DNA of 64,000 nt from Yuukianura sp. NJ FZ-2021 (taxonomy: Eukaryota): NCBI GenBank assembly GCA_046563655.1, contig CM102286.1, positions 3,720,001-3,784,000 of the forward strand. The letters run 5' to 3'. How positions within the stretch are numbered: position 1 is the first letter of the stretch; every line of letters begins with the position of its first letter. A model generated the notes under the pieces. It searched no databases, was not told the DNA's origin, and saw nothing but the letters and a program-made list of their open reading frames with translations. The position numbers and the translations under genes were made by a program. Shown one piece after another: positions 11,826-64,000 of the stretch.

Positions 11826-12150
11826 ATTCGCAGTTTAAGATTTGTAGAAACCGTTTGTACGTTGTGAAAAAGATTTTAAGCTCAATGTGTTGTGTCGAAC
11901 TGTTCCACAATGCGACTGATTCAACGAAAATGAACTAAATTGGGCATGACCCTGTTATTTTTGGCTTTTTAAGTAAAAAAAACTGTGGGCCAACTCTGCG
12001 TTTTCAGAATAACATTAATCATGTGTAAGAAAAAAAGTGACCCCAAAATTCAAAATTATGGGTAGTAGGCTGTCAACAGAATACATTGGGTTTTTCAAAC
12101 TACTTTTACTTTAAGCCTTACCCCACATAATCGTTACATTATATGAGAAG

Positions 12151-12256
12151 AAAAATTGGTAAAATTTTCAGATTTTTATTCCAACGCTAGGGAGTGCCGC
12201 AACAAAAATTGGTAAAATTTTCAGATTTTTATTCCAACGCTAGGGAGTGCCGCAAC
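12151..12256. repeat. Exact 53-bp direct tandem duplication
   Basis: aaaaattggtaaaattttcagatttttattccaacgctagggagtgccgcaac at 12151-12203 and again at 12204-12256. Confidence 0.95.
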
Positions 12257-12291
12257 GGGATCAACGATTTATATAGGGATAACCTACTTAC

Positions 12292-12891
12292 GGATATGTT
12301 GTGGGTATGTTGCGGGTATGTTGTTGGTATGTTGCGGGTATGTTGTTGGTATGTTGTGGGTTTGTTGTTGGTATGTTGTGGGTATGTTGTTGGTATGTTG
12401 TGGGTATGTTGTTGGTATGTTAAGGGTATGTTGCGGGTATGTTGTTGGTATGTTGTGGGTATGTTGTTGGTATGTTAAGGGTATGTTGCGGGTATGTTGT
12501 TGGTATGTTGTCGGTATGTTGCAGGTATGTTGTTGGTATGTTGTTGGTATATTGTTGGTATGTTGCGGGTATGTTGTGGGTATGTTGCGGGTATGTTGTT
12601 GGTATGTTGCGGGTATGTTGTTGGTATGTTGTTGGTATATTGTGGGTATGTTGTTGGTATGTTGTTGGTATATTGTTGGTATGTTGCGGGTATGTTGTTG
12701 GTATGTTGTGGGTATGTTGCGGGTATGTTGTTGGTATGTTGCGGGTATGTTGTTGGTATATTGTTGGTATGTTGCGGGTATGTTGTGGGTATGTTGCGGG
12801 TATGTTGTTGGTATGTTGCGGGTATGTTCTTGGTATGTTGTTGGTATGTTGTTGGTATATTGTTGGTATGTTGTGGGTATGTTGTGGGTAT
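12292..12891. repeat. 11-bp minisatellite, main variants GTATGTTGTTG / GTATGTTGCGG / GTATGTTGTGG, about 54 units
   Basis: Period visible directly; it produces the 11-aa periodic pseudo-ORFs in several frames. Confidence 0.97.
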
Positions 12892-13908
12892 TTGAGTTTC
12901 AGTTAATTTCAATTTTCTTCATTTCTTTAAGGTGAAACGAAGTTTTGCTTTCCCAACCTAAATTTATGGACTGAAACAAAACAGCTGTAGTTTCTTTCAA
13001 TTTTCAGTTTATTTCATTTATTTCAGTTTCTTTCACTGAAACGAAAAAAGCTACTCTACAGCGAATAACAATAAATAAGAATAAACGGGCTTAGATGCGT
13101 ACATTCTAATAGGGCGTCCATTGCTAATCTGTAACATGTCTGCGGCACCCTTTAGAGTTGAAAAAAAATTCTGAAAATTTTACTGTAATTTTCTTTCATA
13201 TACTGGAACACTTTTATGGGTAAGACTTGGAAAGACTTTACTTTTTGTTCCTGCTGACAGCCTAATGGGTAGGTTCTGTCAACAACAAGATAATTTCAAA
13301 CGACGTATCACAAGAGCAGAGAGGTCAACAAACCAAACCATAGTAGATGCTAACTGAAATAAAAAAAAAACAGCTTCTGAGGACAACGCTTTTTGTGCTG
13401 GTCTTTTAAACAAAACAGAAAATAAATCAAAACTAACATATTAATCTGAAACAATTGCAGGGTGAAATAAAAGTTCATTTCACAAGTGAATTTTTTACAA
13501 AATATATTAAGTAACCCAGACTAATCCAAATGTTTATTCGTACACTACAAGGAATAGACATCCAAAATGTTGGCGTTAACATCTTAAGAACTTTTTGTCA
13601 CTCTCTACAATTAGCCTTTCACTGTATTGCATTATTACAATGTAGATGTAATTACAATGAGCGACAGAGTTTGATGTCGTAACAATCCATTTGCAATGAA
13701 TGGATACATTAAAACATTTTCAAAATAATACCCCAAAATAATATCCATTAAAAGATTGAGTTACAAGAGTAAAGAGTAAGAGGTTTCTGGAGAAATTCTT
13801 TTGTAGCAAAACAATTCGAAAGGAAATAAAAATTATCAGAATAGCACAAAAATGTCAGCGCTCGTCATTGGTGGCATAGAAATCACAGATTTTTTGTCAA
13901 CGAAAACC

Positions 13909-48854: not shown

Positions 48855-49365
48855 TCAAGTGGACTTTCTAGAACGACCGGAGGAACGCTTTTGGGAATAC
48901 GTATTTGGCGTTGTTGAAGCTTTATCGTAGTAGTAGTTAACATTGTTAGGGTCAAATCCGAGGTCAGCTACATTTGCAGCGATATCTTCTCTATTGCCGA
49001 ATGCTGTGGATCCAAAACCACCTCCACCGCCTCCAGGACCTTGATCCACCCAAACGTATATCCAAATGAAAATGCCCGCCCAAATCATCCCAGCAACTAC
49101 GCCACCAATTAACTGAAGAACGGGAATTCCAAAGGCGAAAGTCGTATTGGCACAATCAATACCACCGCATCCCTAAGTTTTTCAAATACATTTTAAAAAT
49201 ATAACTTTGCAAGATTTGATTTTTTTAAATATGAATTACCGGACACGCTTTTCCGGTTGCAACTTGGGTCGAATCGGAGGAATTATTTGAATCTTCACTT
49301 CTGACAAAATTGTTTGTCCAAATTATTAACAATTGAAGACAGAGTAGAAATAATCTGTTGTCCAT
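48855..49365 (-). CDS. Small signal-peptide plus single-TM protein with Gly-rich tail (cluster gene A)
   Basis: MDNRLFLLCLQLLIIWTNNFVRS..ATGKACP|GCGGIDCANTTFAFGIPVLQLIGGVVAGMIWAGIFIWIYVWVDQGPGGGGGGFG; phase-0 GT-AG intron. Confidence 0.65.
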
Positions 49366-49804
49366 GTTTTCTTTTAACAATTTTTAGAAAAAATTTGAAA
49401 CTTTTGTGATACAAATACTCAAGCGACTCATCGAAGCCGCTCCAAGTTGTATCAACACTTGTCTGAGACCTCGTAAACTAAAAATGGTGGAGAAAGTAGG
49501 TTTATGATTTTACGTACTCCACAAAATTATTGAAATTTAGTTAATTACAAAAGTGAGGTGTAATAAAATTAAAACACAATTGACCGCAATACAATTGCAA
49601 ATTTAGCCTGTTTTAGATACCACAGAAAACTTGCATTTCAAAGTTCTCAGAACGCAAAAACTTTCACATTGGGTTCTCAAAAATTTCCATTTTTGTTCAT
49701 TCATTTTTCTTCGGTGTTACTTTTTCCTTATTGATGTTTATTCCGTTAAATATTTTATTTGTTCAAAAAATTGGAACTAAAGTTATAGCTTAGATATTTT
49801 AGCA

Positions 49805-50134
49805 TTAAATATTTCTAGAAATTTTTCGGTTCAAGTTCTGGAAGCGTTCAATTCCTTGAAAAATTGGCTGATATCTCACCGGATGTTGTTTTTCAAACTC
49901 ATCATCGCTTCTTCGGAACGGTTCTTCTCCAAATATCGCTTTGTACATCAAAACAAACATTCCCGCCCAAAATATTCCGCCAATCAGTGCTGCTAGACAC
50001 ATCACGGCCTGAATCATATATATCTCCAATGAACCAAAACGAAACAGACTTGAAATGAAGGCCACTGGATCCCTAATGTCACCCACGAACAAATTCGAAA
50101 ATGCGTCCAGTGCAGCGCGTTGCTTAGATTTCAA
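49805..50134 (-). CDS. Small single-TM protein (cluster gene B), 5' end unresolved
   Basis: TM QAVMCLAALIGGIFWAGMFVLMY resembles gene A (GMIWAGIF); followed by RRSDD..IFQGIERF. No clean upstream exon found. Confidence 0.5.
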   Translation of the reverse strand: MKSKQRAALDAFSNLFVGDIRDPVAFISSLFRFGSLEIYMIQAVMCLAALIGGIFWAGMFVLMYKAIFGEEPFRRSDDEFEKQHPVRYQPIFQGIERFQNLNRKISRNI

Positions 50135-51176
50135 ATAAATTCCTCAAAATTAGTACAATTCAACTTCAATTTGATTGTGAGGTGTTAAACTGTAAGCTAC
50201 ACGTTAGAACATACCTGAATAGCTTCGGACATTATTCTATATATATTCGGTATTATTCTGTATTCGGATATACTTTGGACTACCTTATGATTACAATATT
50301 GTAATTCGAATTAATGGAATTCACTACACTGAAATTATAAAAGCTCAACACAAAAAACTCCAACAAATTTTACACGCAGAATGAAAATGTTCAGCTATAT
50401 TGCTTTCCCACAGCAGCGGTTACAACAAAATGAGATCCGGAGTAATAAATTAACATTCGTTGTAACATGTAAATGGAATTTTCATTTTATGAAAATGAGC
50501 AATTTTAAATTCTAAGTGAACCTTAAAAATGTGTGAAAACTTAGCATGTTCTAAGAAAAAGTTAATTTAGAAAAAAAAGTCAAGTTTGTTCATTTGTGAA
50601 AATGGAAACAGGATTTCATTTTGCAGAAATTAGAGCATGGTACATCGTAGACTAAAATTCACTAATTGACAAACTAAATAGTTAAACTTTAAAAATTAAA
50701 ATAAATAGAACTTCAAATTTTTTGGAACAGTTTATTGACACAAGGGGCTGCAAAAGGCTTTTTGTATTTTGATATTTCAGTATGCGTGTTAGTGGTGGCT
50801 ATTGATTTAGTCTTAGTCTCTAAGGGACCCACCCTTAGCAAGACAAGTGCTTTCTCTTCCGCCAAGTGACCCCAATGAGTCCGATTGCTTTTCCATTGAT
50901 TTTTTCTGCTGTCGGAGCCATCCGCCCCACTTTCGGTGAATAATGCTCCAATGACAGGTCTCTTTCACCATCTCCGTCTAAAACCTAACCTAACCAAAAG
51001 GAAGAGGCCGTAGTACAAATTAATTTAGTTCCAGTCAGAGAAAGCATGGCGTTAGACCTATGCAGTCATCATCGAAAATCTAATTCTTCAATTTAACACA
51101 ATTTTTTAACTTAACTTTTAGCAACTTTTAGAGTTTTAGGATGTGAAATCGGTAACATAAAATCTTGGAGAAGAAA

Positions 51177-53731
51177 ATGTTGTGGTGGTCAGCACTGCTA
51201 GTTGTAGTGATTTTGAGCAATAGTTTTGATGGTTCAGATGGAATGACCTCGAGGAGGTCACACAACGGAGGCGCAGACAAGAAGATTGTTTACATTGGTG
51301 GACTTTTGCCAAATGCGTCGGTCGTAATTAGTTCAATTCAAAATGCAATAAGAGACATTAACTACTCCCCTTCCGTGCTGAGTCATCATCAACTTCAATT
51401 CATTTTTGCTGAAAACGAGGTAAATTTTAAAATTTTAATAACAATTTCTGATTATGCAGCTTTCAAATATAATTTTGAAAAACCTTTTTGTGAAAATTTA
51501 CTAAAAATTGAGGCCATTCATTTCTCGTCGTGACTTTCTTCGAAGTTGAAGGAATTCAAGATTATTCAAGGAGAACGGCTAATAATTTGAGCAATTTTGA
51601 TATTGCGTCATATAATGTTGGACTAATTAGATATACTGTTGGCTATACGATATAAAAAATTACGTAGGAAAGAAAGTTATCATGCTGCGTCACACTAGCC
51701 TACATTTCATTTTCTCTTGTGCTTAAGCACCCGATGGCTTCTGTCACTTTGGCTGACATTGACATGACTTGTCCAAACAACTTATAATAGATTGGGCTGT
51801 TCCTCATTTACTCATATTTTAGCGTTTGACGTACAAAAGAAATTTTTTAATATAAAAATCCCAAAATTTTGGAAAATATGCCAACCAGCAATCCTTCTCC
51901 CAATAACCGCATTTTTTTCTTCTTTTGTGAAGGAATGTGACGTAACGCGTGGCTTTCAAACGTACCTGGATTTCGTTGATACTCTGCCCCGAAAACTGCT
52001 GTTACTCAATGGACTTTGTACTGAAATCATTCGGATGATTGATCGTGAATCGAGAACACCACGCGGAAATGCTCGTGCTTTGCAAGTATCCTATGCCACA
52101 ATGGCTCCATCATTTGACTCTAGTTTTCAGTCATCTCTATTTCGAATGCTACCAGCCGAAACGGACTTGATTATACCCAGAACTCAACTACTTCAAGAAA
52201 TTAGTAGCTCAACTCATGACAGAATTGGCCTTATTTATCAAAATCAACCAACGTATTCCGCTGCACACGAAGAACAGGTCAATCAACTAATTCGACTTAA
52301 ATTTGTACGGCTGGAGTCAGAAGGATTTGAACAATCCGCAACCGACTATGAATTGAGGTCACTTCTGCGCCGACTCAGAGACAAAAATGTCAACTTCATC
52401 TTGGGGAACTTCAACTCTGTCCGGGCGAGACAAATTCTCTGCCTTGTAAGTTGTCTATTGACGTTTTGTACAAACAATTTGTCACAAAACCTTCTTTCTA
52501 CAAAATTTAGGCGTACAAAGAAGGAATGTACGGAGAAAATTACACTTGGCTTTTGGCGGGAAATTTTGAACCGAATTGGTGGCGTTGGGTAGGAGATGAC
52601 GCAGACTGTTCAACGCGCAACATGGAAACCGTCATGGACGGAATGCTACGCATTGACATTTTACCATTTTATGGAAAAGCATTCGACAAGGTTAGTTTTC
52701 TACCGTTTCCCCCAAATTTTAATTAAAATTTGACATTTTTTTTTTCAAAATTCTATTTTTGGGATTCAGAAACATGAAGACCACTCTAGTTTCCACCATG
52801 GGAGAAGAACATCTAAGCTGGATGGCTACATTTACGATGCAATGTGGGCAATGGCCTACGCCCTTGATAATGTTTCCTACCACTACACCAAAATGACTCA
52901 CTCCCCACTACCAAATCCCACCGAAGATTTTATTAGCAACAACACCATTAGTTTTCAAAATCCTGTCTGGGACGAGGCACTCCATGTGTCCTTGGCCAAC
53001 GTAAAGTTCCAAGGCATTACCGTAAGTTCACTTTACAAATTTTTAGCACGCAAATTTTTTTGTTTCATATTCTTATTTACAATTTATAGGGTCCGGTGAG
53101 CTTCAACAGAAAAAATGGTCGAGCTGGTTTTGCACTGCTGGTAAAACAGTTCCAGTGTAAGTGGTTCACTTTCATTGATTATCATAGCTTTGACATATTA
53201 AAATATTCATTAATATACATTATACATTCCATTAATTTATTGGAAAATTAATATACATTGAATTAAAGTATTCATGAATCTATAAAAACTATGTTTTAGC
53301 AACTGCCGCTTCTGGCTATGACGAAGTAAACGTAGGAGAGTTCGACAGTGTGTCAAACACGCTAAACCTAGTGAAGTACCCACATAGAATGATCAAAAAG
53401 AGGTCGCAAATTGTGACTTCAAAGGCAACTACGCTTGCATCCGAATCTCATCCAAAACATAACGAAGTAAAAACATACACTTTCGCAAAAAAAGATATTT
53501 TTTGGGTTTTCTAAGTATAGCATTGGAACTTCCGGCACTAACTAACCAATTGAATTTGCTATTGACTAACAGGAAGCTGCCGACCAAGCTTTAAGACACA
53601 TCGCTGGAGTCGGTCCTGCGACAACCTCGGCTAGTACTGCTGTCTACATGGCCTCTACTGCAATAATATTAACCGCCTTTGCCTCTGCAATCTTTCAGAT
53701 CCGCCTTCAGACTTTGTTAGCTTATGCTTAG
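51177..53731 (+). CDS. GABA-B-receptor-like Venus-flytrap (ANF_receptor) ectodomain protein lacking the 7TM domain, with hydrophobic C-terminus
   Basis: Signal MLWWSALLVVVILS. IVYIGGLLP, AIRDIN..VL, ECD, QVSYA, LFRMLP, FILGNF..RARQILCL|AYKEGMYGENYTWLL, WW..CS, GYIYDAMWAMAYAL, FQGIT|GPVSF, VGEFD. Then KKRS, an S/T-rich spacer and AVYMASTAIILTAFASAIFQIRLQTLLAYA*. Confidence 0.8.
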
Positions 53732-54000
53732 AATCTTAAATTTACCATAAACTGTTGTTCTCTACAAGTAAAAAGTACAATGTAACAGAGTTGAATGTTA
53801 TACAACATTATAAAAGACGTTGGAATTATACTGCCATAGTATAGCCTTCTAGAGTTTTAGCAAGACAGAAATTTTCTAGAAAAGTTCCGGAAATGTTACC
53901 AATCATTCCTGCATTCCAATGTATTCGTCCAGTTGCAAATTATAGCGTCTCTGTTAGAGCACAAAATTTCACAAAATTGCTTTATAATTCAACAAATAAA

Positions 54001-54390
54001 CTAGTTTTTATTGTAGTGTTTTCTCAAATTTGGTGTTTTACGACGCTCAAATTTTCTTTCCATTTCGTTATCATCGAGCAGTTTTGAATACGGATTGTTG
54101 TAGCCTGAAGAGTGACCGTAACCGTATCCATGATGTTTTTTCTTTGTTCCAGTGCCATACCTGGAAATTTTCATTTGAGTTTTCAATTTTTTAAAACAAA
54201 AATATTTCTTTTGTTTTTAAATTTTTTGTCCTTACAGTCCACCATTCTCTCCATAATAGAACCACCAATATATTATCCAACCAATCAAGAATTTGATGAG
54301 TATAACGCCCCAGAACACCACGAGAGCACTAACTGTCCCCTTAAAATCAGTCCATTCTGGGCTTAGAAACCGAAATACTTCTAAACCCAT
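54001..54390 (-). CDS. Small single-TM protein with His/Gly/Tyr-rich tail (cluster gene D), 5' end unresolved
   Basis: VSALVVFWGVILIKFLIGWIIYWWFYYGENGG|LYGTGTKKKHHGYGYGHSSGY, joined by a GT-AG intron. Confidence 0.55.
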
Positions 54391-55020
54391 TGACTCAATG
54401 TTAGTTCCAGGATTATGATAAAGTTTTCAATTTTTCAATTGAAAGTTAAGTTTTGTGCGAGTCAATATGTATTATAATTAAGATAAACGTCTGTACTAGA
54501 GTTAGACTAAATGTACACCAGACTTAGATTTAGCTTTAGAAACGTGATGGCGTTCCGTTGCTCAAATTAAAACTAGATAGCGAGAACAAAGAACTAGTTA
54601 ATAACATTCAAATGAAGATACTTCAAAACAACTGACATACTTTTTACGCAGATTCAAAGTAAAAGTTTGTAGTTAGCAATTATGTTAAACTTGTTTTACC
54701 AACATTGAAATAATTTTCCAAACTTAGATGTCATGTTCAGACCTCTAAAAAAATACCAGGTAATGCTGACCTAATTTTAAAAAAAAGTTGAAATGATGAG
54801 AAATATCAAGACAACTTATAATATTAGAAACCGCATTTTTATTAAAATGTTTCAAAACATTGAAATTTCAAATTAAATATTAAAAAACTAGCAACGAATT
54901 AACAAAATTAAATCAAATAAAGTTTTTCCGTTGTAATTAGTTAGTTGTATCCAGAAATTGGCGAAAGTCGTGACTGCGAAAAGAAAAACGCGAGTTTCGC
55001 CAGGATTGTTACTGAATTCT

Positions 55021-55806
55021 TCAATTCTGTTCGTATTTTGCCATTATTGCCTCAATTCCCGCCCAAGCCATTTCGGATGCCGTGTTGATGAGGTTTTGTG
55101 TTGCAATGCTTCGTCCTAACCCATAACCATAACTTGGTTGTGGTTGATGATGTGAACTGGATGCCTCATATCCACCGCTATGGACAAGAAAATGGAAAGT
55201 TAACGAACATAACACTGCAAATGTCCATGTTATTGCTTTCTCTTTCTATTTTTTTGTTACCTATAACCTCCCTTCTTTTCTTCTTTGGCATAAATGGCGT
55301 AATAAATAATAAGGAAAATGATGATCCAGAAGATTGCCGTCTTGACCATAATAATAATAAAAATGACTGTTCCAGTGGCTCCGATGTTTCCGCCGGTCAA
55401 TGTGTTCAGAATGTTTTGAATATCGGCCAGTCCTACCTAAATTACAACTTTCTCAAGTTAGCCTACATCTTGCAATGGTGTATCGTACGCCCATGCGCTT
55501 TGCCTTTCCCGAAGTATCAATTTTAATTAGGACTGGAATTTCTTAGGTCAATCTAGGCATACTTTGATGTTAGGTTAAAACTTTTAAAACTTGATAGTAA
55601 AATCTTACATCTCCGATTTGGTTTAATCGCGGAAAAGCCACCAACGCCTGTTTTGCCCAAGGAATCGTGCTTAACCTCTTCAAAAATGTGGAGTTTTTGA
55701 TATCAATGGGACGCGTTGAATTAAGCGTTTGAGAGGTCACGAGTGTCACGGAGACGAGAACAATACACAGGAGTAATAGCCTCACAGATGCCTTAGGAGC
55801 GCCCAT
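55021..55806 (-). CDS. Signal-peptide plus single-TM protein with Gly/Tyr/His tail (cluster gene E)
   Basis: MGAPKASVRLLLLCIVLVSVTLVTS, TM GTVIFIIIMVKTAIFWIIIFLIIYYAIY, then KEEKKGGY|SGGYEASSSHHQPQPSYGYGLGRS..AIMAKYEQN*. Confidence 0.7.
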
Positions 55807-56449
55807 CCCAATGATTTTTTGGGAATGGTTCTGTCCGTTTCAAAGTGTTCGAATGATCAAGTAATGCCGCGCCGTGAATTTGTGCAAACAGTGATTTTCA
55901 AAATGAGCAGTCAGAAATGCGTTTAGAATAAATTTACAAGAAAATTTACTCAGAAATTCGAGTGATTAGAGTTAACCCACTTTCTATTCTAGGCAAAGTT
56001 ATGTGATAACTCACATGTGAGTGACTCACATGATTTAACCCAAATGTGATATACTTGAACACATTTTATTTTACACTTGAAACAGTTTTATATAGTCTTA
56101 CATAGCAAGTACTGCTAACGTTGCGGAATTTATGTCTTTCATTGACCGTCGGTAAGCACTACACACGAAAATGCCGACCCAAATCCAATTCAAATGCACT
56201 TCCTTCACCGGATTTTAAATTTTTCAAAAAAAGAGTTAAAGTATACCGAAAACTTCATTTGGAGAATCGATTTTTATTTTCTGTTACGTTTCCTTACAAA
56301 AAAAAGTTTTGGGTTTGGTACACGTAACAATAATTTATACTGTAATAATTGATACAGGTTGTACACGTAATATATATAACACTGGTATTGTAGCACCGTT
56401 AACAAATGACAATGTAAGAGGCGAGATAACAGTAACAGTAACATAAATC

Positions 56450-57527
56450 TTATGTCGTTGCTCCTTGAGCCTTAGTTTCACTTTCGTCCATAACGTACTT
56501 AACAGCCGACTTCAGCATCCATTTAGAAATGTCGTTTAAATTTATGCCAAAGCTTCGTGATATTTCGTCAAAGCTGGATGTCAAACTACGACTTGTGCCT
56601 GGAGTTTTGTAAGTGCTTGATGGCGCAGCGTACGCAGTCGCTGGAACTGCTGCGTAACTCGACGATGGCGTCCCATAGCTAGAGGATGGTGCACCATAGC
56701 TTGTAGATGGCGCTCCATAGCTCGTTGATGGTGCTCCATAGCTAGTAGATGGTGCCCCATAGCTAGTAGATGGCGCTCCATAGCTCGTTGATGGCGCACC
56801 GTAGGCTGCGGATGGCTTTCCATATGTCGTCACAGGTTGACCATAGCCTGCTACCGGAGTACCGTAACCGTAGCTTGGAGATGGCGCACCGTAGACGGGT
56901 GCAGGGCTACCATAAGCTTGTGATGGTGTACCATATGAAATTTGTGGTGACTGAGACCCATATCCATACCCGTAACCTGAACTCTCCTGGTACCCTCCAC
57001 CCCCGCTATGCCTTGAAACAAAGTTGATTTTGATCAAAAATTTACGATACATAAACAAACATTGGATGTAAAATTCAGAATTGACAAATTTCGAATAATT
57101 ACTTTTCGACCCCAAACCAAATCCAGAGAAGAATTCCAAGCACGACTAGCTTGATGCCCACCATTGCAGCGATAAAAACTCCAAGTGCAATGGCATCATT
57201 GACCGAAATATTTGCTAACGCATTTGTTATTAAATTGATGATTTGGTTTGCAAGATTTGTTTTTTCTCCAACAGTGAGACACTCTCGCCCCTTGACATCT
57301 TTAGTTTCGGCAATTTCAACAGGTTTTTTAACTTCTTTGGGTTTGACTGTAGTAGTTTCTGGAATCCGATCTTCTGTAGAGTCAATGTAAATCGTATCAA
57401 ATCGACTTGGACGAAGGAGATGTGCCGCATTGGCATTGAACCTTCCAGAAATATTTTTACTTTCACAAAATTTAAACAAAAGCAAAACGAACACAATAAT
57501 ATGATGCCATTTGGACTTCATTTTCAT
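56450..57527 (-). CDS. Signal-peptide plus single-TM protein with YGAPSTS repeats (cluster gene F)
   Basis: [51 protein letters not shown]. Exon 2 has HSGGGGY, about six YGAPS(T/S)S units, RSL..SAVKY. Confidence 0.75.
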
Positions 57528-59159
57528 CTGAAAACTAGAGTTAGACTAAAAGCGACTAAAGTTGGACATGAAAATTAAGAAATATCATTCATGAACTTGT
57601 ACTTTGTAGTAGTTTGTACGCATTACACGTCAGAAAATTTTTGAGCAGAAACTATGAATGAGATGGACCACTTAAATTCAAATTTTGCCACACTAACCAA
57701 GTTTACTAAACACCAAAGTGACTAAATCCTATGTTTGTCCCTTTGAGGAGCATGCGAACATTTGATTTTCATCGGCTTAAAAAATATGTGTTGCATTTAA
57801 AAAGAAAGTTAAAAATTATGCAGTGCACGCCAGCCAGGTTTTATTAACTTTATCTTATTATTTTTGCTTTGTAAAACATTTACTCCTGTGATGATTTAAA
57901 CGCCAATAATGATTTCAAATCTGAAATTTAATCCGTACTATCACTATAATCAGCTGTTTTCCAGTTTTACATTACACATTGTCAAATTCATAAAATAAAG
58001 CAATTATTTTTTGGATGTTACTTGTTAATAGATTATTGACCTCCTCGACTTATTAGAAAAAGTTGAATAAATTGAACATTTCTCCAAAAAAATTCTGTTT
58101 CGATAAGAAGAAAGGACGCTGAGAAACTTTCTCCGAGAAAAGAGCGCGAAATTCATAATTCATAAAGAAATTTTTGAAAAAAAGTCAAATTCAATTCAAT
58201 GAAAAACAAAACAAAAATACATTGTCAAATTGCTAAATAATGTTTTTCGTTGTGTCCTCATTGCACAATGGTTTTTGAGATAGGGCCTAGCACGCATAAA
58301 ACGATGTTGTCAAATCTGCGCGGTACTAACCGGGTAGCTTCATTTTGAAGTAATCTGTTAGGATTTAAGATATTTTAAGCTTTGGAGTACGGATGCTTGC
58401 ACAATACGGATGAGAAAATCAAGAAATACATTGTAGACATAGGACCCTGGAACGTATGCGATTCACCGAAAAGCACCGAATCGGATGCAAAAGTTTAAAG
58501 TGGCCCTTTGAACTATAACGTATGCTTAAGCTAAACTGCTGCGACGGGGTGCGTAAGTATAGAAACGACTGCGGGGGACGGGCCTGAACATACCCCTTTT
58601 AAGGCTTTTTGTCCAGCTGATTGCCACTTTTATCCGGATAGCATCCAGTTTTCATTCAAGAAAATGAGTTTTGTCCGGTCGAAATGAGTTTAAACCGGAC
58701 AAAACTAAACAATTATTTAACTTGAAGCGTATTGGGCCCCAAATGTCACGAATACAAAATATTTTATGTCAACGGTAACTTTACGACGTAAACCATTAGT
58801 TCTATAACGATTGGAATTTATGCGTTCTAGTAACATTACCAAAAACCACTGTGCATTGTATTGATTAATTGCAGTTATAAGTAGTTAACTACGTAAGCGG
58901 AAACCGGTTAATTTTTGTTATTCTCTCTACGGTTGTTCTCGGGTGAGATTTTTATCGTAAACTTCTTGTAATTCTGGAATTTATGTACTTTTGTTGTGGC
59001 TGTTTTTGGTTTAATTATATTCCAGATTGATTTCATTTATTGGTTGAAATTCAATATTAACGATGAATTTGTGAATTTGACGTTTCAACAGCTGACATTT
59101 GGGAAAGCTTCGGACGGACTGTGAACCTTCGACGTCTTACCCCTAAGTAACCTTTCAAG

Positions 59160-61525
59160 ATGAAATTGTCATCGATGCACGAATCTCGAGATATTTCTGA
59201 CGTATCGGAGCTTTACACTCCTGGGAATCTGTTTCTGAAACCAATGTCCAGAATCAATATCACAATTCACTTCCCAACACTGAAGAGCTCAATTCCAAGT
59301 GGCGGAACAATTGTCTCCAGTTGGGGGATCATGGAGAAATTGAAGACTCTTGTAGCACCGGATGAATTCATTTCTATCAAAACTGTGAAGAACACTTTGG
59401 AATTTATTAGATTTGAAGGTGACCTGGAAAACAGAACTGTTATGAAAAGTGTTCTGGGAAGACTTGACGGTAAAAGCTTGGCAGAAGTATATTTAAAATA
59501 TTTGACTAATTACATGATTTTCTTTTCTGCAGGAAAGAAAATGAAGGTGATTGGAATCAAGGCGCCATTGAAAATTCTTTCTGCAGAGACAAAAGTTCCG
59601 TTTCCTTCCAAGTACGACTGGGATTCGTTTTTTCGAGATGCTCGGAATATGAATGAAATGAAGCCGGGAGAGCGACCAGATACAATTCATTTTCAAAATC
59701 TTCCAATTGACTGGTTCCGTGAGCCAAGGTCAAAAGATTCCTCCAAAGGAGGAAAGGAGCCGTTGGAAATTGACCCAGCAGCACGTCCATCTGAACGAAT
59801 GTTTCGCAGAGTCTGGGAAGTATTTGGAGAAGTTCGATGTGTTGACATCCCGATGTTGGATCCATACAGGAACAAAATGAAGCCCAGTTTATCCGGGATA
59901 AAAACTTTCACCTTTAATCTCGATCGTGTGTTCGAAGGATACGTTCAATACAAACAGTACTTGGGCTTTGTGAAGGCCATGAATGCCCTTAGAGGCTCAT
60001 TTCTAGCTCACAGGGAAGACAACAAACTATTCGTTACTTCAATCAAGGTGCAAGATTAACTTCTAGTTGATCAATTTAAATTTGTCTAATGCGTTTTTTA
60101 AAATTACAACCAGGTGGATTTCGATAAAACTAAACATTTAAGCGCAGACTCTATCAATCAACGCGAGGCTGAGATGACAAAACTAAAATCCCTTCCGGGA
60201 CACGATGAGAAAAAAACTGGAGCAAAATCTACCGCTACAGCAAACCCGTTAGTGCCATCCTGTTTGTTAATCTGTCTATGTTAATGTGTCTATTGTAACT
60301 AAATGCACAATATTGTTAATCTAGGTCGAAATCCAACGAAACAGAAGATACTTCCGGAAAGGATAAAGATGCTCGTGACATGGAAATCAAAATTTTCAGG
60401 GAAGAGCGAAAGTATCTAGTCGCTCGACGAAAACTTGAAGCCATCAGACTCATTGACTTTCTCTTGGAGCGTCTCAAGGTACTACTTCGCTTAATGGAGT
60501 TCGCTGATCGTGGCCAATCAAAGTCTCCATCCAACAAAACCATTAAGCCTTAGTCAATCATCCTTCAGCAGCACTGCTGTTAAGGGGCAAAATCCCAAAA
60601 ACTTGTTATGAATCGGGAATATAGACGGGAATTTCAGGTTATGGTCGCCAAAACTAAATTAACGGGGCTTGTAGTAGATTTTTATATCATAGTATCAGTA
60701 TCGTTCTGCACAGAAGTAGTTCCCGAGTTTTAAAAAAAAAAACGCCAAGCCAAGGAAACCTCCTTTTGCTCGAGAAAGTTTCCTTGACGGTTTTTTTCAA
60801 AACTCGGGAACTCCTTCTGTGCAGAACGATAGTACAGTTGGACTTCCCTGTAATGTATTGCTAAAGTCTTCTGAGAGTATGGCTTTGCCGGTTTAGTGGA
60901 GTTCCGACTTTGATTGGCCAAGATTGTCCTGCGGAATGAAATCAACTCATCAACGGAATAATCCGTTTCGCATCTGAAGGCTAAGAAGATTCGGGTAAAT
61001 TCATTTGAATCGAAAATAGTTTTGAATTCTCAATTTCGAATTCTGTTTTAAAATTGTCCATTTCCTGGCCTCCAGGAAATCCAAGAAGAAAGGGCGTGGA
61101 GACGAAAGATGAAGAAGAAGCTACTAAAACGAGCTGCAGCAGCGAAGAAAGCCACCACTGCGTCTTCTGCGCAAGCATCCGCCGCTACGGCTCCAGTCCC
61201 GTCGTCGCCAGTTACCGAAGCTGCTGTGAAGAGGACTAAAACAGATGAAGAAATCAGTTTGGAACAAATGAGGGAACGACTGATCGCTGCAAGAAAGTTG
61301 GGTCCAGAAGAGGCAAGAAGAAAAGAAATGGCTGCCAAAAGTGTCAAACGAGCAATCCAAGGAACCAGGATAACGTCTCAAATTGCCACTTCCCGTCGAG
61401 TGACTCTGCGTCAATATCAAGAACAGAAGGGTTACGTTGAGTACTCCGGATATGCACCAATCTACGGTTCAGTCGCCGCTGATCGAGCGTATGAACGGTA
61501 CTTCCAAAGTCTCACTAGAAAGTGA
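59160..61525 (+). CDS. AKAP17A: A-kinase anchor protein 17A (SFRS17A/XE7) splicing regulator
   Basis: LFLKPMSRINITI, WGIMEKLK, FIRFEGDLEN, FPSKYDWDSFFRDARNMNEMKPGERPDTIH, VFGEVRCVDIPMLDPYR, FEGYVQY..GFVKAMNALRG, K|VDFDKTKHLS, ARRKLEAIRLIDFLLERLK. Last exon about 61076-61525. Confidence 0.9.
60511..60920. repeat. Nested inverted repeats (fold-back) inside the last AKAP17A intron
   Basis: Outer tggccaatcaaagtc (60511-60525) pairs with gactttgattggcca (60906-60920). Inner tatcgttctgcacagaagtagttcccgagtttt (from 60699) pairs with aaaactcgggaactccttctgtgcagaacgata (to 60831). Innermost caaggaaac pairs with gtttccttg. Confidence 0.85.
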
Positions 61526-62056
61526 TGCAGGAAGTTTTCGGAGGAATTTCTACTTTTGACATGACATTTGACATGCGTTGTAGTTTACTCTGTCAAGCAC
61601 ATTGCACATTGTCAGTGAGTTTAACAAAATAAATTATTCTGTTTAGCATAACAAAGGAATCCATGTACATATTTTCTTCAAATCGTCAACATTTTTTTTA
61701 TTTCCTTGAAAAAAAATTGTTTTCAAGGCAGACAATTACTTTACAACATAATGCACCTTTGAAAATTATAATTCAGGTCGCGTGTCATTATTTCTTCAGG
61801 TGACCTGGCTATTGACACGCGTTCAGTTTTATTTAAAGTTATACCCAAGGCGCTTTGAAATTATGACTTCAAGTTTTATTGTTCTAAGGCTATGTGTTTT
61901 GACTTTGGTAAATTAGCTAGAATAATCTAAATGAGTTCATCAATTTATTTTTAATGTACGAACGCTTATGATTTTGTACAAATACTTTATTAAACAGGAG
62001 AAAAACAATTTGAGCGCGTGATTTTAAAAATTTCCGATGTCACCTCACAGTTGAAT

Positions 62057-64000
62057 TTATTTGTGATGACCGTTGCCAATGGGAGAATCCAGGAATTCGG
62101 GATTTTTCGAATCTGGCGCTTTAGTTGATAGTGGATCGTAGTAACAAGTGGGAGAAGTGGGTGCGATTATGTCCAAAGGTAAGCTAGATCTAGAGCGCCT
62201 CTTTGATTTTTTGTTTTTCTTTGCCAGTGGATGTAGGTATTCATCATCAACTTTTTGCGTTTGCTTACAACCTGAAATTTGGTGAAATTTTAGTTTTCGT
62301 TCAACAAATGTTTCTGATTAAATTTAAATTTTACCTCCAGTGAGAAGACTGACAATACTTCCTACTATTAAGGTGATCATTCCTCCCGCGAATGGAAATA
62401 GAGTGTACGAAAGTGTGTACATTTTTGTCGGCCATTCTCTACAAAATTTTTGTTCAAAATTACAAATTTTGGAAATCGTTGCGGCAAAGAAGTTACTTTT
62501 TAAAATTTTCTTACAAGTCATCATTTGACGGAGGAAATTTCGGCATTGTCATGTTTTTACTCTTTACCGCTAAGACAAATTCCTCCTGGCAACCTTTGAC
62601 GCTAAATGGTAAAGGAATGTGGGATCTCTTAATAACAAAAGAACCTGCACTAATCCAAACCATTGTAATGAATCCAGCTGTCATTCCAGCGAGTGCTCCC
62701 TGGTTAAATTCAAAATTTTAAGAAGCCAATGATCACAAATTTTGAAAAATGTGAAATTTTGAAAGTAAAACGTACATATTTGTTGATAAATGGCATCAAA
62801 AGACCCATGAAAAACACCATTCCGAGTGGACCGCTTAATGCACCTAGTGCTGTAGAAGTAGCTGCCAAAAGATTTCCCATGTGTGATGCAATGAAAGCGA
62901 GTAGAATTGAAATTACACCAAATCCCAGAGCTATTGCGAAAATTAAATTTTGATAATTGAGTATATTTAAATTATGAAACAAAAAAAAAATTTCTTTTTT
63001 CTTTACCAATGCCGCGTACAAAATTTGCCTGTTTCTTTGGACCCATTTTTCGCAAGCATGGAATTGGAGACAAAAAGTCTTCCCAAACCACCGCAGCGAT
63101 TGAGTTCAATCCAGACGAAATTGTACTAAAAAAAGTAAAGGTTGAAAATTTTCTTTCAATATACGAAAGAAAAACAAGAAAATTTGCCAAAATTTACCTC
63201 AGAGACGCTGCAAATACACAAGCAGTGAAAAGACCCATCATCCCTGGCATAAACTCAAGTTGGTCTTGTACAAAAAATGGAACAATTTGGTCAATTTTTG
63301 AAATTTTTCCGAGACGTCTGGGATCGCAGTCAGCATAAGTAGCGAACACAACAATTCCAGATAACAGACAGAGCGACACTGTGAACAAGTTCAGCGGAAT
63401 TGCAAAAATGACTGCCCTGAAAATTTTAAAATTGGCGCCAAAATTACATGAGCTATTTTCATTCCCACCACTTTCAAAATAACTCACTTGACAGCATGCT
63501 TGAATGACGGTAAACTGCAGTATCGTTGAACTTGCGGTTGATGTGTTCCGTAGAGACATAAGATTGTGAATCCTTGACCCAGGATAATGTTGAGGGCATT
63601 ATGACGCATGAAGGGATCAATCGTTGAGCTGTTCAGTTTGCGGCATAATTAAGTGAATAAGTTTAGAAACTTAAAAAAAAAGTTCAAATTTCAAAATTTG
63701 GCGCCCTAAACTTACTCAAATAGAACAAGACGTCCGTGCTCTTCTGCTTTAGCTAAAGCTTCGCTTACTCCACCGGTGGTAATGAACCCGTGAATAATGA
63801 TTGACAAGAGTCCTGCCATGAGCATGATAAGTTGAAATACGTCTGTCCATACAACTGCCCTAAGACCTCCCTGTTCAAATGTAGAAAAATGTTTAAACAA
63901 GTTGACAAGTTTTAAAATTTAAGAAATTAAGGCTGTTCACTAACAATGGAAGTGTAGATGGTAGCGCATAATCCAAGACCAATCACAGATTGCCAAACCG
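62057..64000 (-). CDS. Sodium:solute symporter, SLC5A8/12 (SMCT)-like; 5' part lies beyond the window
   Basis: GGLRAVVWTDVFQ, YADCDP, DQIVPFFV, PGMMGLFTACVFAASL|STISSGLNSIAAV.WED, GALSGPLGMVFFMG, MYTLSY, VGSIVSLLTG; TAA at 62057. Confidence 0.92.

Follow-up and report, generated by a model that had tools for sequence, protein, structure and literature searches.

Flytrap domains that lack the 7TM region of class C GPCRs have been described from several sources, and the comparison that follows draws on the available portions of the reports cited. SmGBP of Schistosoma mansoni is, in the accessible text of its report (PMC3206071), the product of a dedicated 7TM-less class C flytrap gene that is conserved in related species; it is derived from an mGluR, has kept its pocket and binds glutamate, it is membrane-associated and dimeric, and its candidate anchor lies at the N-terminus. 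EhVFT of Entamoeba histolytica combines a signal peptide and a flytrap with a putative C-terminal GPI signal, likewise with no 7TM region, and belongs to a separate lineage nearest to bacterial binding proteins; in the part of its report available to us, binding of GABA or glutamate was undetected by ITC (PMC12965686). Ectodomains without a 7TM region are also made as splice variants of intact receptor genes, in both cases of a ligand-binding subunit: the secreted GABA-B1 forms (GABA-B1e and others), of which GABA-B1e is described as binding its partner subunit (PMC3920572, in part), and a truncated form of mGluR3 whose C-terminus has a short hydrophobic segment (cited in the same portion of PMC3206071). 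A GPI-flytrap biosensor is, in the excerpted text of PMC10921406, proposed only.

Here we describe a gene of Yuukianura sp. NJ FZ-2021 (98.7-Mb genome) that can be compared with each of these. Like SmGBP, it appears to be a dedicated gene for a 7TM-less class C flytrap, with an ortholog on a metagenome contig (L077), and we count the membrane-associated, dimeric state of SmGBP as a likeness as well, tethering of the protein reported here being predicted; its source, however, would be the non-binding subunit GABA-B R2 instead of an mGluR, and its candidate anchor is C-terminal. With EhVFT it would share the arrangement of signal peptide, flytrap and C-terminal GPI signal, the first and last of these being candidates here, but it reads as a duplicate of an animal GABA-B gene, and unlike the GABA-B1 and mGluR3 variants it is a separate gene, apparently derived from R2. 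Flytraps without a 7TM region were known already; the new part is a separate, R2-derived gene of this kind. We found no report of an R2-derived ectodomain-only gene from springtails or other arthropods in the open-access literature; subscription papers and the GPCR supplements of genome papers, which lie outside that scope, may list such a gene as "GABA-B R2-like."

The window, that is, the whole stretch of DNA that was analyzed, comprises 64,000 nt (contig C4, positions 3720001 to 3784000, plus strand). The gene model has seven exons between window positions 51177 and 53731 on the plus strand, with GT..AG at every border, and gives an intact protein of 526 amino acids with no internal stop. 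Its features, in window coordinates, are as follows.

51177..51419, plus strand: exon 1, signal-peptide-like N-terminus, then the start of flytrap lobe 1
51177..51242: signal-peptide-like segment (about residues 1 to 22), judged from hydropathy and the ortholog
51933..52445, plus strand: exon 2, flytrap core, containing both remodelled helices of lobe 1 and the greater part of lobe 2
52511..52690, plus strand: exon 3, flytrap lobe 2
52770..53021, plus strand: exon 4, flytrap
53090..53156, plus strand: exon 5, flytrap, followed by a phase-1 intron
53300..53466, plus strand: exon 6, flytrap end, basic site and S/T-rich spacer
53386..53412, plus strand: convertase-like site R-x-x-basic-basic-R-S-Q-I (residues 448 to 456), present in this gene and in L077 in place of the R2 stalk motif W..PP
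53538..53546 and 53566, plus strand: branch-point-like motifs of the last intron (at 53538, 53542 and 53566), preceding the exon-7 acceptor
53573..53731, plus strand: exon 7, linker, small-residue stretch (omega candidates S493 and S495), hydrophobic tail and stop
53639..53695, plus strand: hydrophobic core A497-F515, GPI signal or single TM helix
53746, 53809 and 53995: poly(A)-signal-like hexamers 3' of the stop
54001..54216, minus strand: last reading frame of the convergent neighbour gene, a boundary marker outside the gene

From its N-terminus, the predicted protein thus consists of a hydrophobic segment, the flytrap domain, the basic site (residues 448 to 456), the S/T-rich spacer and the hydrophobic core (residues 497 to 515), with the stop codon 11 residues past that core. 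An earlier note on this DNA had read the same elements here (a signal peptide and whole flytrap domain, a KKR-type site, an S/T spacer and a hydrophobic end), and the C-terminal sequence that it quoted matches our exon model; it had also placed the end of an opposite-strand gene 270 bp past the stop, where we found that frame to end (position 54001). Its description of a whole, GABA-B-like ligand-binding domain needs amending on two points. The domain is a GABA-B-type flytrap, but it is R2-like, which does not suit the generic label "ligand-binding," and exon 1 lacks a loop of about 10 residues that R1 and R2 have and that in R1 carries the GABA contact W65. In both orthologs the N-terminus is hydrophobic and is followed by a common G-M-T-S-R, as judged from hydropathy and comparison of the two. 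GC content is 0.42 to 0.49 in the exons versus 0.20 to 0.32 in the introns and 3' flank. The Pfam matches of the exons all fall below the curated cut-off, exon 4 matching ANF_receptor at an E value of 0.0026.

Small minus-strand genes encoding a hydrophobic stretch and Gly/Tyr/Pro-rich tails lie around the locus (window positions 48855 to 50143 and 54001 to 57545), and no Pfam family was found for five such frames in these intervals. Elsewhere in the window, positions 12001 to 13000 show a very strong skew (GC skew 0.57, AT skew -0.35) and are probably a simple repeat.

The genome has full-length R1 (C1), R2 (C6) and R3-like (C5) genes, labelled from sequence likeness, so that the window gene is a fourth one. 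Elsewhere in the genome its exon 2 matches only the full-length receptor on C6 (34%), which clusters with named arthropod R2 proteins; the likeness of the window protein to this R2 of the same genome (own R2) extends to residue 449 and ends there. Against the PDB, exon 2 matched fly R2 (E = 1e-18) ahead of human R2 (2e-4) and fly R1 (0.08), an alignment profile of the flytrap reached fly R2 at an E value of 2.9e-35, and a fold search with a partly low-confidence exon-2 model ranked fly R2 first. That AlphaFold model, of exon 2 alone, has a mean pLDDT of 59.7, with residues 1 to 76 below 50, and is useless for the pocket; the ESM Atlas returned generic flytrap clusters only, at most 0.90. The window gene and own R2 have phase-0 introns in lobe 2 and in the hinge in common and probably share a further one at about the stalk position of R2; the intron before the first cysteine lies a codon away from that of R2, and the phase-1 intron after exon 5 is absent from R2 and common to the window gene and L077. 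In a 29-row tree, whose R1 and R3 outgroup rows have approximate junctions, the window protein, L077 and a second metagenome protein (P0002) form a clade with support of 100/100 on a long branch, and this clade sits inside the springtail R2 group (Allacma, Orchesella and own R2) with support of 84/88, a node that is not starred. On the basis of the common introns, the nesting within springtail R2 and the ranking of R2 above R1 in the PDB, we regard the gene as a fast-evolving springtail-lineage duplicate of R2. Compared with arthropod R2 proteins (fly R2 structure 9jqx_B and the C6 receptor included), the window protein is alike in flytrap sequence (30 to 37% in exon 2), in most intron positions, in four cysteines and in R2-type residues at GABA-contact positions; it differs in having no stalk, 7TM region or cytoplasmic tail, in its remodelled lobe-1 helices, in its new basic site, S/T spacer and hydrophobic end, and in being encoded by a separate gene on another contig.

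Among 1.84 billion representatives searched, 27 matched, with the metagenome proteins P0001 (62%) and P0002 (41%) at the top. Among 176 proteins compared, P0001 is the only one whose score with the window protein exceeds that with own R2, and its contig is L077, retrieved in a metagenome scan in which 1 of 165 pattern matches was confirmed. Exons 1 to 6 are present on L077, all six visible exons being intact, with the same borders and no stop, and two upstream genes of the small minus-strand type are common to L077 and the window. Over 419 codons, the two genes are 61% identical, a figure that exon 2 taken alone also gives, with a dN of 0.27, a dS of about 2.7, which is near saturation, and a dN/dS of about 0.1, and the four cysteines are conserved. 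These values point to purifying selection on the flytrap. The earlier note had named decay in relatives as an observation that would speak against its reading; the relative was found instead to have an intact frame and the same introns, to have gained the basic site and to have lost the stalk. P0002 is encoded by a single exon, scores 127 bits against own R2 and 107 bits against the window protein, ends before the C-terminus and is placed in the clade by the tree. The range seen so far is therefore narrow, comprising two, perhaps three, springtail-like genomes. Word-index searches for a clade member that includes the C-terminus found none, either among 873 candidates or among the 14 matches and the 120 listed of 237 matches obtained from 8000 scored each (the query alignment of the last search had exons 1, 5 and 6 misplaced).

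Exon 7 is the weakest part of the gene model. It is known from one genome only, as the L077 contig ends 163 bp past the exon-6 donor, and neither of two possible acceptors in those 163 bp yields exon-7-like sequence (one implies a 38-bp intron; the other leaves only five codons). A codon model fitted to 1843 codons from the same genome gives exon 7 a score of 0.455 bits per codon in the frame quoted in the earlier note, versus -0.08 and 0.11 in the other frames, and 116 held-out, overlapping windows of non-coding sequence all scored lower; the read-through into intron 6 comes to -0.18 bits per codon. The exon-6 donor (position 53466) is kept in L077, in the same phase and after the same two residues, and the read-through tails past it are unrelated between the two genes. 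A candidate origin of the tail as a remnant of R2 TM1, with which the intron position would fit, was not supported, since exon 7 scored 0.8 bits against a profile of 39 R2 TM1 segments, a value matched or beaten by 419 of 1000 shuffles.

A GABA-B 7TM region was looked for in several ways. In the window and a further 50 kb, tblastn with the full-length R2 proteins P0003 and P0015 as queries matched nothing past the flytrap, and a profile of the R2 stalk and 7TM region, run against window positions 53300 to 64000 and the next 50 kb of the contig (4996 ORF pieces), scored at most 3.5 bits (E ≥ 3.6), versus best matches of 65 to 179 bits at three positive-control loci. The earlier claim that no 7TM exons follow downstream thus holds across 60 kb. 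Genome-wide, 25 candidates were scored and gave 22 7tm_3 matches, none of them near the window gene. We also considered a split receptor, in which a separate, orphan R2-type 7TM protein would complement the flytrap, but the R2 7TM exon as a query gave five matches at four loci in the genome, none of them orphan (R2, R1, R3 and one locus that is GPR158-like by its reading frames), and this arrangement is not supported. The stalk, the link from flytrap to TM1 (as defined in the accessible part of PMC8163086), is missing too: its W..PP motif is present in 18 of 18 R2 rows and absent from the window gene and L077. Nor is there an intracellular kinase or cyclase, the short tail after the hydrophobic core being followed by the convergent gene. 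With neither stalk nor 7TM region in its predicted sequence, the window protein is best classed as a derivative of the R2 lineage outside the class C GPCRs.

Other class C-related loci were seen in this genome along the way. At C3:4589001-4619000 (L061-L063), a block of about 17 kb is present twice, nearly identical, and contains a class C-like 7TM gene with no flytrap match (minus strand), an alpha-amylase-like frame and flytrap exons (plus strand). The first flytrap copy is followed by a tyrosine-kinase frame that we take to be PDGF/VEGF-receptor-like rather than insulin-receptor-like; should flytrap and kinase belong to a single gene, this would be an atypical Venus kinase receptor. Flytrap exons followed by a kinase frame also occur at C7:6087651-6091842 (L027/L034), where the kinase is presumably insulin-receptor-like and the whole looks like an ordinary Venus kinase receptor. 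Near 7.795 Mb on C8 (L064:1469-5435), a strong 7tm_3 match is preceded by a degenerate-looking ectodomain with no ANF_receptor match listed, and this locus is an orphan class C receptor. Two similarly laid-out flytrap-plus-7TM genes about 113 kb apart, at C4:2.706-2.739 Mb and C4:2.819-2.853 Mb (minus strand; L006, L007, L025 and L028), are probably a duplicated mGluR-type receptor.

GABA is contacted by W65, S130, S153, H170, Y250, W278 and E349 (PMC12499500, in part), and in the available text of PMC7411975 the R2 flytrap is not seen to bind ligand and touches R1 via lobe 1, the LB1-LB1 interface having stacking tyrosines. Of these seven contacts, own R1 keeps all (its first three contact spacings equal those of the fly), L077 three and the window protein one, W278, which is common to R2. 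Neither ortholog has the W65 loop, and at positions S153 and H170 the window protein carries M and L, versus S and H in L077; since the residues differ between the orthologs, these positions would not be under selection as a pocket. The predicted window protein, then, has no GABA pocket. Among R2-invariant flytrap columns, the window protein keeps 61 of 110. The share is lower in two lobe-1 helices, which we take to be the surface by which R2 meets R1: 4 of 14 R2-invariant residues are left there, versus 55 of 92 after them (Fisher p = 0.04, a lead only, as the helix segments were picked after the alignment had been viewed). The two orthologs agree in these helices (25 of 37 positions) at least as well as in the remainder (188 of 315). 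Past helix C, an insertion accompanies the loss of a conserved Trp, and the helix-B region retains its hydrophobic pattern.

At the position of the R2 stalk, the two orthologs have the R-x-x-basic-basic-R-S-Q-I sequence, which we take to be a proprotein convertase site; a basic triplet occurs there in none of the 18 R2 rows. The hydrophobic end is less easily read. GPI signals have small residues at omega and omega+2, a polar spacer and a terminal hydrophobic stretch, the propeptide being about 17 to 31 amino acids long. The earlier note had called the C-terminus GPI-signal-like, and such a reading is possible. Cleavage at S495 would leave a propeptide of 31 residues and at S493 one of 33, at or past the usual limit, the spacers are mildly hydrophobic (hydropathy 0.99), the tail is interrupted by an Arg and a Gln pair, and past the hydrophobic core comes an Arg, as would be expected of a single TM helix, so that the GPI reading is not clean. 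The best 19-residue hydropathy is 1.87 in the tail core, versus 2.34 in R2 TM1. We rate the chance that the tail is a GPI anchor signal as slightly better than even, and that it is a single TM helix followed by an 11-residue tail as a little short of even.

Taken together, these observations would fit the following course of events. In a springtail lineage, a duplicate of R2 appears to have dropped the stalk with all that follows it and to have acquired a new last exon. Its product would enter the secretory pathway and be held at the surface by the hydrophobic tail, and a proprotein convertase might cut at the conserved basic site and free a soluble flytrap. As there is no G-protein-coupling part, the protein would act by binding only. 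The lobe-1 helices by which R2 holds R1 seem to have been rewritten and then kept in their new form, which makes a new partner (a second copy of itself, in a homodimer, or some other surface receptor) or a ligand other than GABA most likely. A role as sheddable co-receptor or carrier would suit this, rather than one as a GABA sponge or plain R2 mimic. With about even confidence, then, we prefer to see the protein as one that does not signal, is tethered and can be shed, and acts by binding a new partner or non-GABA ligand. A more specific proposal, possible to our minds but doubtful, is that a non-binding R2 flytrap has become a signalling or co-receptor protein that is GPI-tethered, is released by a convertase and has a new dimer surface, serving as extracellular ligand or partner for another receptor, or as a natural regulator of the GABA-B heterodimer, the first to be gene-encoded.

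Other explanations would give the flytrap a role closer to its origin. It might be a natural GABA-B modulator, docking on the R1 flytrap as that of R2 does and either competing with R2, as a dominant negative, or tuning the agonist affinity of R1. The R2 origin seen in the tree and the PDB ranking, the full-length R1 with intact pocket in the same genome and the retained pattern of helix B are all consistent with this, and in the accessible portion of PMC3920572 the R2 ectodomain binds that of R1 and raises its agonist affinity and secreted GABA-B1e disturbs the R1/R2 association. The few invariant residues left in the lobe-1 helices, the lost Trp and the lack of a coiled coil for co-trafficking argue against it, however, and we consider a modulator unlikely. 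The earlier note had proposed a decoy, co-receptor or amino-acid sensor, and its stand-alone tethered or shed flytrap has held up. Improbable, in our judgment, is the version in which GABA or an amino acid is bound in the cleft: although the fold is that of a flytrap, SmGBP sets a precedent for a 7TM-less flytrap binding glutamate and two GABA-contact positions are S and H in L077, the gene descends from the non-binding subunit, six of seven contacts and the W65 loop are gone from the window protein, and the S153/H170 positions differ between the orthologs (M/S and L/H).

The remaining doubts concern the gene itself. The modelled exon 7 might not be the main last exon, the messenger instead reading through intron 6 into a short open tail, which would make a soluble form, or splicing to a distant exon, possibly for a signalling domain. 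That exon 7 is seen in one species, with nothing resembling it behind the two L077 acceptors, speaks for such an ending; it is nonetheless rather improbable in view of the donor conserved in both species, the unrelated read-through tails, the coding score of exon 7 versus that of the read-through, the nearby end of the convergent gene and the lack of a 7TM region in 60 kb. That the locus is a decaying partial R2 duplicate, as its long branch might suggest, is highly improbable and largely refuted by the comparison with L077, in which frames, splice sites and all four cysteines are kept at near-saturated dS.

The R2 flytrap has been an orphan cleft with an allosteric role only. That an R2 domain stands alone and is under purifying selection over a near-saturated dS shows it to be capable of a job without any 7TM region, and the protein offers a compact secreted construct with which to look for binders of an R2-type flytrap. 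It would also be an animal, gene-level case of a receptor ectodomain turned into a tethered, sheddable protein.
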